From positions 1 to 55,567 of the forward strand of contig PWMT01000168.1 of assembly GCA_003558085.1 (NCBI GenBank): a stretch of 55,567 bases of DNA, read 5' to 3'. A program made the translations under genes and the position numbers. Shown one piece after another: positions 7,616-47,479 of the stretch. Each line of letters starts with the position of its first letter. Within the stretch, counting starts at the first letter, position 1. The notes beneath the pieces are model-generated. The model saw only the letters and a program-made list of their open reading frames with translations, was not told where the DNA came from and made no database searches. This DNA is from Methanobacteriaceae archaeon. Lineage in GTDB: Archaea > Methanobacteriota > Methanobacteria > Methanobacteriales > Methanobacteriaceae.

Positions 7616-8734
7616 ATGAATACTTTAGAAAAGATGCAAATCTTAACTGATTCTGCCCAATATGACCTTTGTGATTACGTAAACCATCAAACTAGCTCAT
7701 CCCCGAATCTGCCAGGAATATATAACAGCACTATCAGTTCTGGATGTAAAATACCTATTTTTAAGGTTCTAATGACCAATCAATGTTGTAATGACTGTAA
7801 ATATTGTTTGAATAATTCAAAAAGAAAATTTACTAGAATAGAGCTTAGCCCTGAAGAATTGACTAGGGTATTCCTCAACTATTATCAACAAAAATATGTG
7901 CATGGTTTATTTTTAAGTTCAGGTATATCCAGAGATATTGAAACTTCCATGGGAAAAGTGGTGGAAGTGGCCCGATTATTAAGATTAGAACATGGATATC
8001 AGGACTACATTCATTTAAAAATTATCCCAGGAACATCAAGGGATCTAATTAAAAGAGCTATGGCATTGGCTGATAGAGTAAGTGTAAATATTGAAGCAGC
8101 CACCCCTTCCGGACTCCAGGAAATCAGCTCTACTAAAGATTTTCAAGGAGATATCATACGGCGTTTGAAATGGATAAGGAATATACATAAAAAGGATCCA
8201 CATAAAGCACCATCTGGACAAAGCACCCAATTTATAGTGGGGGCCAATGATGAAAGTGATGAGGACATTCTAAAAAGAGTTAAATGGCTTTATGATAAAT
8301 TTAAAATTAAAAGAAGCTATTTTAGTACTTTTCAATCTTTAGAAGACACGCCTCTTGAAAAAAGGCCCAGTGCTGACCCTGTACGTTCTTCTAGACTTTA
8401 TCAGGCTGATGCTTTACTAAATTCCTATAATTTCAAGCTTAGAGAATTAATTTTTGAGGAAGATGGTGATCTTAATTTGCATCAGGACCCTAAATATTTA
8501 GCTGCCCTGAATATGGACATGTTTCCTGTGGAAATTAATCAAGCTCTATATAAAAATTTAATTAGAGTACCCGGTATCGGTCCTATATCTGCTAGAAGAA
8601 TCATTACCCTAAGAAAAAAACAAGCCTTTGAAAAGGTAGGAGAATTAAAAAAAATCGGTGTGGCAGTAGAAAGAGCTCAACCATTTATAAAAATACAAGG
8701 AACTTATCAGAGTTCATTGGATATTTTTTCTTAG
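7616..8734 (+). CDS. Radical SAM protein with C-terminal helix-hairpin-helix (putative DNA modification/repair family)
   Basis: CCNDCKYC (CxxxCxxC), YIHLKIIPG, ADRVSVNIE, RLYQADAL, and HhH motif LIRVPGIGPISA. Confidence 0.85.
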   Translation: MNTLEKMQILTDSAQYDLCDYVNHQTSSSPNLPGIYNSTISSGCKIPIFKVLMTNQCCNDCKYCLNNSKRKFTRIELSPEELTRVFLNYYQQKYVHGLFLSSGISRDIETSMGKVVEVARLLRLEHGYQDYIHLKIIPGTSRDLIKRAMALADRVSVNIEAATPSGLQEISSTKDFQGDIIRRLKWIRNIHKKDPHKAPSGQSTQFIVGANDESDEDILKRVKWLYDKFKIKRSYFSTFQSLEDTPLEKRPSADPVRSSRLYQADALLNSYNFKLRELIFEEDGDLNLHQDPKYLAALNMDMFPVEINQALYKNLIRVPGIGPISARRIITLRKKQAFEKVGELKKIGVAVERAQPFIKIQGTYQSSLDIFS

Positions 8735-8777
8735 ATTTCCAAGTGAATATTAAATATTAACTTAGATTATGTTTAAA

Positions 8778-9158
8778 TTATAAATCCTTAAAAAGTTCCC
8801 AAATTTCCGGATATTTTTCCTGAACAGCCTCTTCTATTAGCTCAGAGGCGACTTTGCTAATGCTAAATTCGGGTTGTGTTTTTTTCAAGTAGCGAAGTAC
8901 AGCAGCAGACCTTGCAGACCATAAGGTTATTCTAGGATTTTTTTTAACTTGATTGGTGACCTGCTTTAAGTTTTGAGAATCAATAGATTGCGCTGATGAT
9001 GAGTTTTGAATTTTTTCATTATCTTTATTAATATCAGTTCTATTCTCTTCTTTAATCTGTAAATTTTCCTTGGGTTCTTCCGGAGATCTAGTCTTGGATT
9101 TAATTAAAGCGTCTAAACCCATACCTAGACCAGAAGTTTTTATTCTTTTACGGGCCAT
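8778..9158 (-). CDS. ParA partner protein: ParB-like N-terminal arm, linker, predicted ribbon-helix-helix C-terminus
   Basis: N-terminal GLGMGLDALI and C-terminal RITLW followed by two predicted helices. Its ATG overlaps the parA stop (TAATG at 9156-9160). Confidence 0.7.
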   Translation of the reverse strand: MARKRIKTSGLGMGLDALIKSKTRSPEEPKENLQIKEENRTDINKDNEKIQNSSSAQSIDSQNLKQVTNQVKKNPRITLWSARSAAVLRYLKKTQPEFSISKVASELIEEAVQEKYPEIWELFKDL

Positions 9159-9931
9159 TATTTATCCTCCATTTTTAAAAGCTCCTCAGCCAGTTTAATA
9201 TAAGATATGGTGCCTTTACTCTCTTGATCATATAAGATACAAGGTTTTCCATAACTTGGGGCTTCTGCTAGACGCACATTGCGCGGTATGGTAGTTTTAA
9301 AAATATATTCTTTATCTCCAAAGAATTTTTTAACCTCTTGATGCACCTCACGACCCAATCTTGTTCGTGAATCATAAAGAGTCATTAAAATACCTTTAAT
9401 GGGTGAGGGACTTTGTAGACGCTCTTCTACTAAATTCATAGTTTTAAGTAAATCAGCCATTCCCTCCAGTGCATAATATTCGGCCTGTATAGGAATAATA
9501 ACACTATCTGATGCAACCAAAGCATTTAAAGTAAGTATGCCTAAAGAAGGAGGTACATCCACAATAATATAATCAAAAAGCTCTTTTACATTTTTTAGAG
9601 CCTCTTCTAAAATGGAATGGTATCCGATTTCTCTACTAAGCTCTACTTCCGCACCAGATAGGGAAATATTGCTAGGTAAAATATATAATCCTTCCACCAT
9701 TGTGGGCAGTATAGCATCTGCTATATCATGTTCTCTGCTTAAAACGGAATATATGCTATAATCAAGATTGGCTTTTTCCACCCCAAAACCCGTGGTAGCA
9801 TTTCCCTGAGGATCCATATCAACCAAGAGTACTTTTTTATCAAATAAAGCTAATGCTGTGGATAAATTTACTGCTGTGGTAGTCTTGCCACAACCACCTT
9901 TTTGATTTAATATTGAAATTATTTCTCCCAT
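9158..9931 (-). CDS. parA: ParA/Soj family ATPase
   Basis: Deviant Walker A NQKGGCGKTTT, VDMDPQGNAT, DVPPSLG, QAEYYALEG and IPRNVRLAEAPSYG. Confidence 0.95.
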   Translation of the reverse strand: MGEIISILNQKGGCGKTTTAVNLSTALALFDKKVLLVDMDPQGNATTGFGVEKANLDYSIYSVLSREHDIADAILPTMVEGLYILPSNISLSGAEVELSREIGYHSILEEALKNVKELFDYIIVDVPPSLGILTLNALVASDSVIIPIQAEYYALEGMADLLKTMNLVEERLQSPSPIKGILMTLYDSRTRLGREVHQEVKKFFGDKEYIFKTTIPRNVRLAEAPSYGKPCILYDQESKGTISYIKLAEELLKMEDK

Positions 9932-9946
9932 CCGATCCCTCCAAAA

Positions 9947-10040
9947 ATAAGCTAGTATCCTAGTTATAAGTGATATAAGCTAATATCCTACTTATAAGTG
10001 ATAAGTATTATGTTATAAGTTAAAACTTATAACTTATAAG
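9947..10040 (-). repeat. Phased heptad array with a 28-bp tandem repeat in the parA promoter (candidate centromere/operator)
   Basis: Minus strand from 10038 reads TATAAGT TATAAGT TTTAACT TATAACA TAATACT TATCACT TATAAGT [14 bp] TATCACT TATAACT [14 bp]. Segments 9947-9974 and 9975-10002 match at 26/28. A perfect 10-bp inverted repeat lies at 10012-10021 and 10024-10033. Confidence 0.8.
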
Positions 10041-10082: not shown

Positions 10083-11912
10083 TTAAAATGCAATCCTTTC
10101 AGAAACTAGCAGCGGTAAAGGCAAAGCTCTAAATGGCATGCCGCTAGTTTCATCTTTTATTATTTTCACCAGATTATCCAGATCAGTGGTCTTTTTTTCT
10201 TCATTTTTTCGTATGTTTGCGGTGATTTCACCACTTTCGACTTCTCTATCCCCGATTACCACCACATAGGGTATCCATTCTTGGGCCGCGTTTCTTATTT
10301 TTTTACCCACCCTCTCTACACGATCATCCACATCTACTCTTATATTATGATCCTTTAATTTAGCGGCAAAATCAAGGGCAAAATCAAGGTGCCTTTCAGA
10401 GATAGGTAATAATCTAACCTGGGTAGGTGAAAGCCAAGTAGGTAACATTGGTGCTTTTTCATTCCTTTCAATAGCTGTTTTCTCAAGTAAACTGCATATC
10501 ACTCTTTCTATGCTTCCAGTAGGACTACAATGAATAATTATAGGGTGTGCTTCCTCTTCATCTTCATTTACATAAGTAATATCAAATCTTTCCCCGCTTT
10601 CCACATCAATTTGTATAGTAGGATTTTCAATAGGTCTTCCTAGATAATCAATAGCAGCAAAATCCATTTTACAAATCCAATAATGTTTTCTTTCTGCTAA
10701 AATTTCGATTAGGACAGGTTTATCTACTTTAGAAGCAGCCTGATGCATCCAGTCCTTATATTTTTCATAGAAATCTTCTGTAGCCCGGAATATAACCTCA
10801 TAATTTACTTCTAAGTCCTCACCGGTCTTTTTACACATGAGGATTTGACGATCGAATTCCGTTAATGACTGTTCCAGATCCTGACAGACGGTATGCAAAT
10901 CAGGCATGGTGAAACCACGCAAGCGTTTTAAACCTACTACTTCGCCTTTTTTCTCCATGCGGAAACTGTAAGTTGATAATTCATAAATTCTAACCGGAAG
11001 GTTTTTCCAGGTTAAAAAAGAGTCAGATAAAACTCTAAAAGCTCCAAAACAGCATGCATATCTTAACATGAGCTCCTTTTTACTATGGCCCATACGATAC
11101 TGACGTTCACCAAACTTTTCAGCATGTACTCTTATGGCTTCATCTGCCAGATCATACATAATAGGAGTTTCTACTTGCATTGCTCCTTCATGGGTGACAA
11201 GTTGATATACATAGTCTGCCAGTAAATCACGAATTAATCTACCTTTAGGATACCAACGAAGATGTCCAACATCGGCAGAGGGTTCATAGTCTGCTAAATT
11301 TTTCTCTCGCATTAGTTTTACATGTGGTGATTCCTCACCGCTTGATTTAATCTTTCCCAACTCATACATGGCCAGTTTTCGTAGTTCTTCGCTTTTGAAT
11401 TCAAATTCATCAGGTGAGATAAGCTTACCCTGATCTAAAATGTACCATTGAGATTCTATATCTTTTTCTTCTATTTCTTGAATTTTATCCTCAGGAGTAA
11501 TAGTACGGGATAATTCTGAAAGAGGATGGCCTTTACAAGATATTTCAAAGGATTTATACCATCCAAAAGGAGCTCGGGCCACTTTATATCCTTTTTCTTT
11601 TAAAATAGTCTCCATGTTATTTAAAATTGATTTAGCGGTTTCAGGAGAACTTAAAGAAGAGGTTAAATGAGCATAGGGGTATATGACTATTCCTTCTGCT
11701 TTTATTTTTTTGAAAACATCTTCCACTTCTTTTATTACTTTTGGAACGATTTCTTCAGATTTATTTTCATCTTCTGCTTCCACTGCAGTGAAAACTACCA
11801 ATACATCTTTAAAATAGCCTTCTTTTTGATCTGGTTCAATTTGCTCAGCAATTTTGGTTTTGTTTTTGGTTTGATATTTTAAATAATCGGAGTGAATAAA
11901 TAATACACGCAT
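10083..11912 (-). CDS. thrS: Threonine--tRNA ligase (archaeal type)
   Basis: Archaeal editing domain ([25 protein letters not shown]), plus [13 protein letters not shown] and [10 protein letters not shown]. Confidence 0.97.
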
Positions 11913-31676: not shown

Positions 31677-31711
31677 GCTAAGTTATAAGTTATCACTTAT
31701 AACTTATAATT
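31677..31711 (+). repeat. Second copy of the parA-promoter heptad array
   Basis: GCTAAGT TATAAGT TATCACT TATAACT TATAATT. Segment 31682-31709 matches 10012-10039 at 26/28. Perfect 12-bp inverted arms at 31679-31690 and 31695-31706. Confidence 0.75.
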
Positions 31712-45130: not shown

Positions 45131-46288
45131 TTACATACCCCATATTGCGTCTTCCAAGAGGATAGTATCGCATTGGAGATCTATTATATTAGTCCTTCCC
45201 TTTGCCCGGCCTCTAGAAATAGTATTAGTAGAGATTAAACCTAACATTTCTAATTCATTAATGAAATCAAATATTCTTCTATACGAGACTGAATCTCCCC
45301 TTGATACATCTTTATATACTTCAAAAAGCCTTCCTGAAGTTATTTCTTCTTTTCTCTTAGTAAGATAAAGTATGGACTCTAACACTCTCTGCTGCTGACT
45401 AGGTAAAGTCATGATAATGTCAGTTATTTTATTGTGTTCAATATAATCTTTAGCCTCTCGAACATATTCTCCTCTTACAAGTTCGGATTCTTTTTCATCA
45501 GCGAGTTCTCCAGAGGTTCTTAAAAGATCAAGGGCATAACGAGCATCTCCTTCTTCTTTAGCAGCTAAAGCAGCACATAATGGTATTACATCATCACTTA
45601 ATGCTCCTTCTTTAAAGGATAATTTCGCGCGTTCATCCAATATGTCAACCAATTGTTGAGCGCCGTAGGGAGGGAAAACAATTTCCCTGTCTCTCAAACT
45701 ACTTTTAACCCGAGGTTTAATAAATTTTTTAAAATCGACATAATTACTTATAGATAAAATGGAAACATTATCGGTCCTGGTCAAAGTGTAGAGTATCCCG
45801 TCACCATCATTTCGCAATAGAATATCTATTTCATCAAGAATAACTATTAATAATAGATTCTTTCCAAAAGCATTCCTTTTAAATAAATTTCGGAAGGTAT
45901 TTATAACTTCTGCTTTAGTCCATCCCCGATAAGGGACATCTCTACCCATCTGTTGACATAAACGCGCTATAACTTGATATTCAGTAGTATAATCTGTACA
46001 TCTAATATATTCAGTTCTAATATTCAATTCATCCTTTTTTGATGCTTCTTTTAATTGTTTCATACCAAATTTTGCTACAGCAGTTTTTCCAGTCCCTGTT
46101 TTACCATATATAGTAATATCGGGAGGTGTTACATTATTTAAAGCTTCAATCCAGTATTTAGCAATTGATTTAATTTGTTCTTCCCTATGAGGTAGATTAT
46201 CCGGCAAAAATCGATGATCTAAAAATTTTTTATCCGTAAAAACAGTTTCTTTATCCCCTAATTCTTCGAATATATTCATAAAAACCAC
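45131..46288 (-). CDS. cdc6: Orc1/Cdc6 replication initiator
   Basis: [33 protein letters not shown] and a winged-helix end (ELEMLGLI...SRGR..GRT). Confidence 0.97.
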
Positions 46289-46499: not shown

Positions 46500-47300
46500 A
46501 ATATGAAGTTATGTTTCAAGTGTAAAAATGTTATCATAACTAACAAATAAAACTTTTTATTATTTTCTCAGGTTCTTATTAATAACAAATCTGGAACTTA
46601 TATTTATAATAAATTATTAATTTATATTATTAAAAGAGGTGTATTTCCAGTGTAATATGATGATAAATTATAACCTTGAAATTTTCATATCTGCTTATAT
46701 TTAAATAGAAGTAATCATAGGATCTTAAATATAAAATTAAGTAGAAATAAGTTTATCTAGCATTATAAATTATATTTAATAATTAATTAATTAAAAAAAC
46801 TTTTAAATTGAATATTGTTTATGGTCTAATTAGGTTAGGAGAATAGTTACACTTGAAATATATGACTATTTTAATTAATTCAAAAATATTCACCTAAAAA
46901 AAAACCACTATTTTATTATTTTTACACTTGCAATTGACCTCATTTTAACTTTCTTATTGCACTATTTTAAGGTAAAAATGAACCAGAATCCTTGTTTATT
47001 AATTTTTCGTATTTTTATTCATTAATTAAAAATTACTTAGTTACAGTTGCAATTGACCTCTCTGTGGAGGGTTTGGTTTTTTCGGGTGCTGGTTTTTTAC
47101 AGTTGCAATTGACCTCTCTGTGGTGTTTTTATGTGATGGGAGGTAGATTTTTTTTACAGTTGCAATTGACCTCTCTCTGATGTTTTTTGGTTTTTTTGGG
47201 TGCTGGTTTTTTACAGTTGCAATTGACCTCTCTGTGGTGTTTTTATGTGATGGGAGGTAGATTTTTTTTACAGTTGCAATTGACCTCTCTAAAAAAAAAA
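46500..47300. other. Probable chromosomal replication origin (oriC): inverted ORB boxes flanking an AT-rich segment
   Basis: Minus-strand boxes at 46513-46525 (TTACACTTGAAAC) and 46636-46655 (TTACACTGGAAATACACCTC). AT-rich segment at 46656-46846. Plus-strand boxes at 46847 (TTACACTTGAAAT), 46922, 47041, 47097, 47154, 47211 and 47268. Directly upstream of cdc6. Confidence 0.9.
47041..47290 (+). repeat. Five identical 23-bp ORB-type repeats, period 56-57 bp
   Basis: TTACAGTTGCAATTGACCTCTCT five times. Spacers 2 and 4 are identical; spacers 1 and 3 are related. Confidence 0.95.
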
Positions 47301-47479
47301 GAATAAACTTAATTTTGAATTTTTACTACTTAAATGGAATAAATTTTGAATTATAAATTGAACTAAACCGCTTAAGTGAATAATCTTAATTTCAGATATT
47401 AAATAAAAATATAAAACAATATTCACTATCTTAAGTGAATAAAAATAAGGAAGTTTATTTTTATATTACTTAGATTTTA

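Follow-up and report, generated by a model that had tools for sequence, protein, structure and literature searches.

We describe the coupled genes parA (segA) and segB in a stretch of DNA from a Methanobacteriaceae archaeon (assembly GCA_003558085.1, contig PWMT01000168.1, positions 1-55,567 of the forward strand); this whole stretch of 55,567 nt is what we call the window. The two genes probably form a chromosomal segAB partition operon of a hybrid kind, in which the adaptor is a SegB protein with a ribbon-helix-helix (RHH) domain and a ParB-type peptide, its partner is a Soj-type ParA, and arrays of a 7-bp repeat (heptad) would serve as the centromere. A preliminary description of the locus, made without database searches, had proposed a chimeric system that joins a Spo0J-type activator arm to RHH DNA binding. 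The elements that carry the argument are:

9158..9931, minus strand: parA/segA, a Soj-type deviant Walker A ATPase of 257 residues, with KGGCGKT and the signature Lys11 (Pfam AAA_31)
8778..9158, minus strand: segB homologue, a candidate centromere-binding adaptor of 126 residues whose start overlaps the parA stop
9102..9134, minus strand: motif of the ParB ParA-binding type, SGLGMGLDALI, residues 9-19 of the small protein, with the basic tail MARKRIKT before it and KSKTR after it
8781..8981, minus strand: SegB-type RHH domain, residues 60-126, signature KNPRITLWS, assigned by PDB profile match, AF2 (AlphaFold2) and Foldseek
9947..10040, no strand: array of the heptad TAACTTA/TAAGTTA upstream of parA, a candidate centromere/operator overlapping the promoter region

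The parA and segB open reading frames (ORFs) have one base in common, 9158, so that the coding strand reads TAATG there, and the translated ParA carries KGGCGKT at residues 11-17, DSRTRL at 187-192 and PRNVRL at 216-221. The coupling of parA to an ORF of 126 residues and all three motifs, as listed in the preliminary description, are present in the sequence. The small protein begins with MARKRIKTSGLGMGLDALIKSK, continues through a polar middle of low complexity and ends in ...NPRITLWSARSAAVLRYLKKTQPEFSISKVASELIEEAVQEKYPEIWELFKDL; its C-terminal blocks are, in order, NPRITLWS, ARSAAVLRYLKK and SISKVASELIEEAV.

The small protein has a large family. At an E-value cutoff of 0.01, 1450 of 1454 candidate clusters (90% identity) were retained as relatives, and among the matches listed, the best 120 of those 1450, we find Methanobacterium, Methanothermobacter, Methanobrevibacter, Methanosphaera and unnamed Methanobacteriaceae. 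Of representatives at 50% identity, 237 match at E ≤ 0.001, and 101 of these at E ≤ 1e-10. An alignment of 25 homologues falls into three parts: the N-terminal motif, a linker of highly variable length that is not alignable, and a C-terminal block some 55 residues long that is nearly invariant, with most of residues 74-123 not varying at all (including N74, P75, R76, I77, L79, W80 and S81).

A profile built from those 25 homologues and compared to the PDB retrieves SegB of Saccharolobus solfataricus alone (7DUV, E-value 2.1e-13, and 7DV2, 4.8e-10; the next best match has an E-value of 0.12), and the homology lies in the C-terminal 67 residues. The AF2 model of residues 60-126, made from an alignment of 88 sequences, has a pLDDT (predicted local distance difference test) of 94.9 and consists of a helix, the extended NPRITLWS and three helices; the NPRITLWS strand stands extended and unpaired in this model, which is of a monomer. 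The full-length monomer model (mean pLDDT 58.8, with the strand built as a helix) was discarded in favour of the model of the C-terminal domain. When the latter is compared to the PDB using Foldseek, the top four matches are SegB chains with template modelling (TM) scores of 0.75-0.82, root-mean-square deviations (rmsd) of 2.0-3.0 Å and 30-32% identity (for 7DV2_A and 7DUV_A, TM 0.80 and 0.82, rmsd 2.0 and 2.2 Å, respectively), and the remaining nine rows all have E ≥ 7. The published SegB signature is K/R-D/N-P-K/R-I-G/T-V/L-W-S-Y/P-P/E (PMC12139799). The window's K-N-P-R-I-T-L-W-S-A-R fits it at the first 9 of 11 positions, and the final A and R do not fit. The SegB fold is a ribbon-helix-helix with site-specific DNA binding (Yen et al. 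2021, PMC8682754).

Because profile, fold and signature agree, the adaptor is, by sequence, a SegB-family homologue, beyond mere analogy to Sulfolobus SegB. The RHH-like end of the preliminary description is therefore well founded, and its comparison with Sulfolobus SegB holds as far as likeness of fold goes; what it took for a parallel is in fact homology. It was also right that the adaptor has neither the CTPase motif (GxRR) nor the helix-turn-helix (HTH) centromere-binding domain of a ParB: a Pfam scan of the 126 residues returned no ParB/Srx or HTH family at E ≤ 1 (the sole row was Med26, E-value 0.086, below the cut-off), and an NCBIfam scan gave no match near any cut-off. SegB homologues in Methanobacteriales had already been catalogued, with that of M. 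thermautotrophicus named (PMC5120986), and a transfer of SegB into "the ancestor of Methanobacteriales" has been proposed by authors who describe euryarchaeal SegB N-termini as lineage-specific, poorly conserved and of unknown function (PMC12139799).

Two observations on the family may be useful to others. Many SegB homologues of 100-190 residues (for example P0015, P0018, P0021, P0027 and P0064) are named "AAA family ATPase" by NCBI and have no ATPase domain, a name probably carried over from the adjacent ParA. And a separate group of relatives of 156-214 residues (P0174, P0184, P0186, P0196, P0205-P0208, P0211, P0212, P0214 and P0221-P0223) has the SegB-like strand-helix block at its start, no ParB-type peptide and, in most members, two matched stretches, which suggests tandem or extended RHH proteins.

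The partner ATPase is, from sequence comparison, Soj-type and not Sulfolobus SegA-type, as the preliminary description had it. The window's ParA matches Pfam AAA_31 (E-value 2.6e-64) and CbiA (2.9e-24), and it finds the following chains in the PDB:

8RAY, M. xanthus ParA: 252.8 bits, E-value 2.8e-74, full length
6IUB, H. pylori Soj: E-value 9.6e-62
1WCV, T. thermophilus Soj: E-value 4.7e-60
7DUT, S. solfataricus SegA: 73.8 bits, E-value 1.4e-19, residues 4-165 only

Each of the first three alignments runs from ParA residue 1 or 5 to residue 252 or 254, and SegA comes eleventh among the listed PDB sequences, behind MinD and PF-32.

At the other end of the adaptor stands the peptide. In M. xanthus ParB, mutation has shown that L11, L15, L18 and I19 are required for binding to ParA, and that R13 (a Lys in about half of ParBs) is required for the stimulation of the ATPase and not for binding; the R13A protein keeps ParA binding and almost loses stimulation (PMC12462528). 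The window's SegB has L11, M13, L15, L18 and I19, that is, the same residue numbers as L11, R13, L15, L18 and I19 of M. xanthus. Across the 25 homologues L11, G12, G14, L15, L18 and I19 are invariant, with the consensus L-G-x-G-L-D/E-A/S-L-I, and among 144 distant representatives 66 have the ParB-type motif, one such cluster holding proteins labelled Archaeoglobaceae. A profile of 14 N-termini, compared to all of the PDB at E ≤ 10, finds two sequences, and one of them is Spo0J of T. thermophilus (1VZ0, residues 1-18, E-value 0.77). The position-for-position match gives substance to the Spo0J-type arm of the preliminary description.

The same N-terminal profile did not return Sulfolobus SegB at that cutoff. 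In the comparison with SegB 7DUV, profile positions 1-41 are unaligned, and no N-terminal conservation with Sulfolobus SegB was found (the first 9 residues of 7DUV lie outside the comparison). Residues 1-21 of Sulfolobus SegB are required for stimulation of the SegA ATPase (PMC8682754), and Sulfolobus SegA differs around the ParB-peptide region, as does the sequence of its activating peptide (PMC12462528).

The hydrophobic pocket that would receive the peptide is conserved as well. In M. xanthus ParA the ParB motif docks into a pocket formed by V116, L150, L152, L155, L187 and L192, and R13 adjoins Y81, E82, D110 and E117 (PMC12462528). Aligned to 8RAY, the window's ParA has at the pocket positions V96, L130, I132, L135, L167 and L172, all six identical or conservative, and for the residues around R13 the counterparts are Y61 (of Y81), E97 (of E117), S62 (of E82) and S90 (of D110).

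How far these features hold in the order can be seen in a synteny survey of Methanobacteriales, as the preliminary description had proposed. The sample comprises 80 species-genome loci (the best 80 of 235 confirmed loci, from 350 pattern matches) plus the window's own, and in 74 of these 81 a script finds a ParA of 254-267 residues with KGGxGK[ST] abutting or overlapping segB; in the other seven it found no ParA or, in L021, no SegB by pattern, several of them being at contig ends. In all 74 ParAs the equivalents of Y81, E117, L150, L187 and L192 are invariant, and the other pocket positions are aliphatic in nearly all, with a single Arg at the V116 position. The central residue of the peptide is K in 44 loci, R in 18, M in 9 and L in 3. 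Met at the motif's usual basic position, to which the preliminary description had drawn attention, is present here and is a minority variant in the order: 62 of the 74 loci have K or R there, and 12 have M or L.

The upstream regions of the same 74 loci provide the candidate centromere. Their common unit is the heptad TAACTTA, together with the complementary TAAGTTA, in both direct and inverted orientation; Methanobrevibacter has the close variant AACTTAA. Counting the hexamer AACTTA/TAAGTT in the 220 bp upstream of parA, we observe 354 copies in 16,255 bp (21.8 per kb), as opposed to 673 in 360,074 bp (1.87 per kb) elsewhere in these loci, an 11.7-fold enrichment, with at least two copies upstream in all 74 loci and at least three in 61. 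The number of hexamers per locus in four 100-bp bins before the parA start is 2.96, 1.64, 1.11 and 1.16, in comparison with at most 0.16 inside genes. A second peak (1.2 per locus) lies just downstream of the end of segB, and thus the arrays bracket the operon. In the window, positions 9947-10002 are a 28-bp (4 × 7) direct repeat in two copies, 10009-10036 is a phased core of four heptads, and several TTATAAG-like words lie within the array; the region 9947-10040 is also the densest [CG]TTATAA[CG] cluster of the 1.86-Mb genome, with 5 in 120 bp. Two further heptad features of the window are:

8758..8764, no strand: one exact TAACTTA unit, 14 bp beyond the stop of segB
31679..31706, no strand: phased array of four heptads, TAAGTTA TAAGTTA TCACTTA TAACTTA, intergenic between the genes for an aminotransferase class IV and a BacA/UppP protein, between segAB and oriC

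In the whole genome of the window there are four phased arrays of at least three heptads (at most one mismatch each), where 20 block shuffles give 0-2, with a mean of 0.25:

10009-10036, in the window
31679-31706, in the window
contig C18, 35601-35635
contig C31, 982-1002, TGAGTTA in three copies

The C18 array (positions 1802-1836 of L082) is the best of the genome, with five phased units, four of them exact, and its neighbours are genes for a TOBE-domain (ModE-like) regulator and for a small 2x[4Fe-4S] ferredoxin. The C31 array is a perfect tandem whose unit is one base off the SegB-type heptad.

Complete chromosomes show where such arrays tend to lie. We searched the chromosomes of nine relatives assembled in a single contig (2.0-2.9 Mb) for exact matches to the double heptad TAASTTATAASTTA, merging overlapping ones. 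Of the 35 arrays found, 30 are within 45 kb of segB, near cdc6/oriC. All nine chromosomes have one directly upstream of parA, and several others lie between cdc6 and segAB. As a control, the reversed pattern occurs 0-1 times per strand per genome. By their sequence the repeats upstream of parA are likely to be the centromere.

Two other site models were considered. The palindrome CTTATAAG occurs three times in the window where 2.32 are expected, and 37 of 100 shuffles reach three; this lack of enrichment, together with the comparison of the 74 loci, led us to adopt the heptad. The Sulfolobus SegB site is TCTAGA-S-TCTAGA, and euryarchaeal sites are expected to differ (PMC12284271). That site has no exact copy in the whole genome, and its 13 copies with up to two substitutions are all on contigs other than that of the window.

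The proximity to a replication origin, which the preliminary description had put at about 37 kb, can be followed in the window itself:

45131-46288, minus strand: cdc6/orc1 (Cdc6_lid, E-value 3.7e-28; Cdc6_C, 7.8e-22)
46915-47309, no strand: six copies of TTACAGTTGCAATTGACCTC, repeats like origin recognition boxes (ORB), mostly at a spacing of 57 bp, giving the replication origin context

From these two elements segAB is about 35-37 kb from the origin, in agreement with that figure, and in four of four complete relatives the best Cdc6 match is about 29-44 kb from segAB. The ORB-like repeats are in a non-coding stretch of 1.8 kb adjoining cdc6/orc1, which further left also has inverted copies of TTACACTTG(A/C)AA.

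Several of our results weigh against a hybrid segAB operon with a heptad centromere, some concerning the peptide and some the arrays. The Spo0J match of the N-terminal profile (E-value 0.77) is not significant alone, and the motif is 9 residues long. The peptide of the window has Met at the position of M. xanthus R13, and the two acidic positions E82 and D110, serines in the window's ParA, are variable across the order. The peptide's central residue and the E82/D110 positions show no clean covariation: an acidic residue is found at the E82 position in 20 of the 62 loci with K or R and in none of the 12 with M or L, a comparison that is confounded by relatedness. As for the arrays, in 28 of 74 loci another window of 223 bp is richer in hexamers than the region upstream of parA; for most of these, the bins and the peak past segB suggest that the richer window is an extension of the array to -400 or the cluster downstream of segB, a reading made without a locus-by-locus check. 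The array upstream of parA in the window's own genome is degenerate, its four heptads each having up to one mismatch. The heptad is A+T-rich and promoter-like, and arrays are intergenic beside unrelated genes (uppP-like, ferredoxin), as would fit a purely regulatory operator. The lack of enrichment of the palindrome CTTATAAG counts on the same side.

The chief uncertainty for this genome is Met13. Since R13A in M. xanthus binds and barely activates, the window's copy of SegB may, by analogy, tether without activating. The basic stretch that follows the motif (KSKTR here) may compensate for the Met: over the 74 loci the mean net charge of the 8 residues after the motif is +1.75 in the M/L type, -1.75 in the K type and -0.83 in the R type, values in which relatedness is a confounder and independent lineages are few. 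A prediction of the complex (two ParA with ATP and Mg, plus SegB residues 1-45) scored 0.21 and 0.01 relative to a mark of 0.32 and was run without controls; we count it neither for nor against docking of the peptide.

If SegB were mainly an RHH repressor of transcription, with a small regulon made up of the segAB operon and of genes that adjoin the other arrays (uppP-like and ferredoxin among them), and ParA a co-regulator or engaged in some other positioning role, there would be no part for either in chromosome segregation. The arrays are indeed intergenic and in promoter regions, and omega-type RHH partition proteins double as global repressors, with heptad sites that overlap promoters (PMC4498918). 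Nevertheless, we consider this explanation unlikely. The concentration of arrays around segB and cdc6 in the nine chromosomes is not what a regulon-wide distribution would look like; the small protein comes with a full Soj-type ParA in which both the DNA-binding residues and those of the ParB pocket are conserved; its peptide is strictly conserved; and Sulfolobus homologues have segregation phenotypes (PMC12139799, PMC12284271). Autoregulation and partition are, besides, compatible with each other.

A second explanation accepts partition and questions the peptide. The likeness of LGxGLDALI to the ParB peptide could be convergence or chance, the stretch having another role (SegB oligomerisation, spreading or DNA contact), and the activation of ParA would then fall to a different part of SegB, as it may in Sulfolobus. 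The shortness of the motif, the weak E-value of its Spo0J match and the 12 of 74 loci in which the central basic residue is dispensable all lean this way, and so do the SegA-SegB cross-links scattered along Sulfolobus SegB (PMC8682754). On the other hand, the four hydrophobic residues needed in M. xanthus ParB are all matched, invariant and at an equal distance from the N-terminus, and the ParA that occurs with them keeps the pocket at six of six positions, three of which are invariant in 74 of 74 loci. The N-terminal profile, moreover, misses the SegB of Sulfolobus, whose ParA partner differs (PMC12462528). Convergence thus seems to us a rather poor account of the motif.

An integrated type Ib par locus of a plasmid or mobile element, standing outside the host's segregation machinery, is very improbable: a small ParA with an RHH protein and upstream iterons is the classic type Ib plasmid layout, and some genomes have two or three SegB matches, but the gene is near-universal in the order, its position 29-45 kb from cdc6 is conserved, housekeeping genes flank it on both sides (7616-8734, radical-SAM/HhH; 10083-11912, thrS), and no integrase or other mobile-element gene was seen among the ORFs examined around the locus. 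A whole-genome search recovers SegB from 221 of the 229 genomes of Methanobacteriales (214 of the 222 of high quality) and from all 27 genera and all 3 families; segB is therefore a core gene of the order, neither scarce nor the cargo of mobile elements. The window's genome has a single copy.

We also noted the following about these genomes and flanks. The genomes with two or three SegB matches include those of genus g10 (G058, G063, G065 and G066), and the extra matches are possibly paralogues or plasmid or provirus copies. A segAB of Methanobrevibacter type is found on contigs filed under metagenome-assembled genomes (MAGs) of a "Bacteroidaceae bacterium" and a "Bacilli bacterium" (L030 and L066), likely a binning contamination. 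The gene at 7616-8734 (plus strand), convergent to segB, encodes a radical-SAM protein with a C-terminal helix-hairpin-helix (HhH; Radical_SAM, E-value 7e-13; HHH_3, 8.5e-9) and may be a DNA-related enzyme.

The hybrid operon has features in common with each of several known partition systems. With SegAB of Saccharolobus solfataricus and Sulfolobus acidocaldarius (7DUV, 7DV2, 7DUT) it shares the homologous C-terminal RHH of SegB (E-value 2e-13, TM 0.8) with the signature K-N/D-P-K/R-I-T/G-L/V-W-S, a segB directly downstream of a ParA-type gene and overlapping it, a disordered N-terminus followed by a variable linker, and sites that are expected upstream of the operon as well as at other positions of the chromosome. 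It differs in that the ATPase here is a Soj-type ParA of 257 residues (253 bits to M. xanthus ParA) whereas SegA has 220 residues (74 bits, in a partial alignment), in the bacterial ParB motif at the N-terminus of SegB, in having candidate heptad arrays and no exact TCTAGA-S-TCTAGA, and in a small protein that stops short of the region with R106 of S. solfataricus. The hosts differ too: those of the present operon are rods that use FtsZ, and not cocci that divide by ESCRT.

In bacterial Soj-Spo0J/ParABS (8RAY; 1WCV and 1VZ0; 6IUB) the ParA is similar over its full length, with the pocket, the equivalents of Y81 and E117 and the DNA-binding arginine of PRNVRL conserved, the adaptor motif L-G-(R/K)-G-L-x-A-L-(I/L) is likewise at residues 11-19, and the locus is origin-proximal. 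Unlike ParB, the adaptor here has no ParB/Srx CTPase, HTH or C-terminal ParB dimerisation domain, its DNA would be read by the RHH, and this genome has Met in place of the motif's central R/K. Since the ParB/Srx CTPase domain is absent, we would expect no CTP-gated clamp, no clamp-driven sliding and no juxtaposition of peptides by a clamp.

The type Ib plasmid systems, delta-omega of pSM19035 and ParF-ParG of TP228, also pair a small Walker ParA with a small dimeric RHH adaptor that has a flexible, ATPase-activating N-terminal tail (a likeness that for the present system is one of architecture only), and their centromeres, like the candidate one here, consist of contiguous 7-bp heptads, direct and inverted, that overlap promoters; for omega of pSM19035, parS has 7-10 contiguous heptads (PMC4498918). 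The differences are another heptad sequence, a chromosomal location near-universal in an archaeal order, and a tail of the chromosomal ParB type. No omega, ParG or CopG chain was returned when the profile of the small protein was compared to the PDB at E ≤ 10. Finally, AspA-ParB-ParA of the Sulfolobus plasmid pNOB8 is, like our operon, an archaeal partition system mixing bacterial-type and archaeal parts (PMC8682754). It differs in being tripartite: the centromere is bound by a protein of its own, AspA, and there is a true ParB N-domain. No homology was found between these components and the small protein here.

How such an operon might work can be sketched from these parts. A dimeric RHH SegB would bind the TAACTTA/TAAGTTA arrays through its RHH ribbon. 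Loaded on arrays that bracket the operon and recur close to the origin, it would build a centromere-like partition complex; with arrays overlapping the promoter, it would probably also repress its own promoter and so autoregulate the operon. Two flexible SegB N-terminal peptides would dock in two hydrophobic pockets at the dimer interface of a ParA-ATP dimer bound to DNA, and the docked peptide would trigger ATP hydrolysis, driving a ParABS-like ratchet that could partition the origin regions without a CTP-clamp ParB.

Whether the whole order segregates its origins in this manner is a broader proposal that we hold to be evenly balanced. It would have Methanobacteriales use a ParABS-like machine with no CTP-clamp ParB, made of Soj and a SegB with an acquired or retained ParB peptide and acting on an origin-proximal heptad centromere, with an exchange of modules between ParB and SegB in its history. 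The SegAB family and its Methanobacteriales homologues are already known; the Soj partner, the ParB peptide and the heptad arrays are apparently new features. We found none of the three described for Methanobacteriales in the literature searched, that is, in the portions available to us of PMC12139799, PMC8682754, PMC12284271, PMC5120986, PMC7613921, PMC7617429 and PMC12216602; the supplementary euryarchaeal SegB alignments of PMC12139799 may display the motif.

The near-universality of segB in the order, and the diversity of those relatives that have a ParB-type motif (66 of 144, including Archaeoglobaceae), argue against the published account in which euryarchaeal SegB is scarce and was imported recently from Sulfolobaceae, and also against a link of SegB with spherical cells.

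To our knowledge, what is known of chromosome segregation in archaea comes solely from SegAB of Sulfolobales, and we know of no centromere or segregation mechanism for methanogens and other histone-bearing Euryarchaeota. If the broader proposal is true, the heptad arrays would give methanogens their first predicted centromere, and an exchange of modules between bacterial ParB and archaeal SegB would be implied. The locus offers a candidate centromere of 7-bp repeats next to oriC, a candidate activation peptide of 11 residues for which the well-mapped ParB-ParA interface of bacteria allows a direct comparison, and, in the natural K, R, M and L variants at the key position of the motif, material for structure-function work. 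The ParB activation peptide may thus be a portable module, here on an unrelated DNA-binding scaffold, which would bear on the evolution of specificity between ParA and its adaptors and on the published history of SegB.

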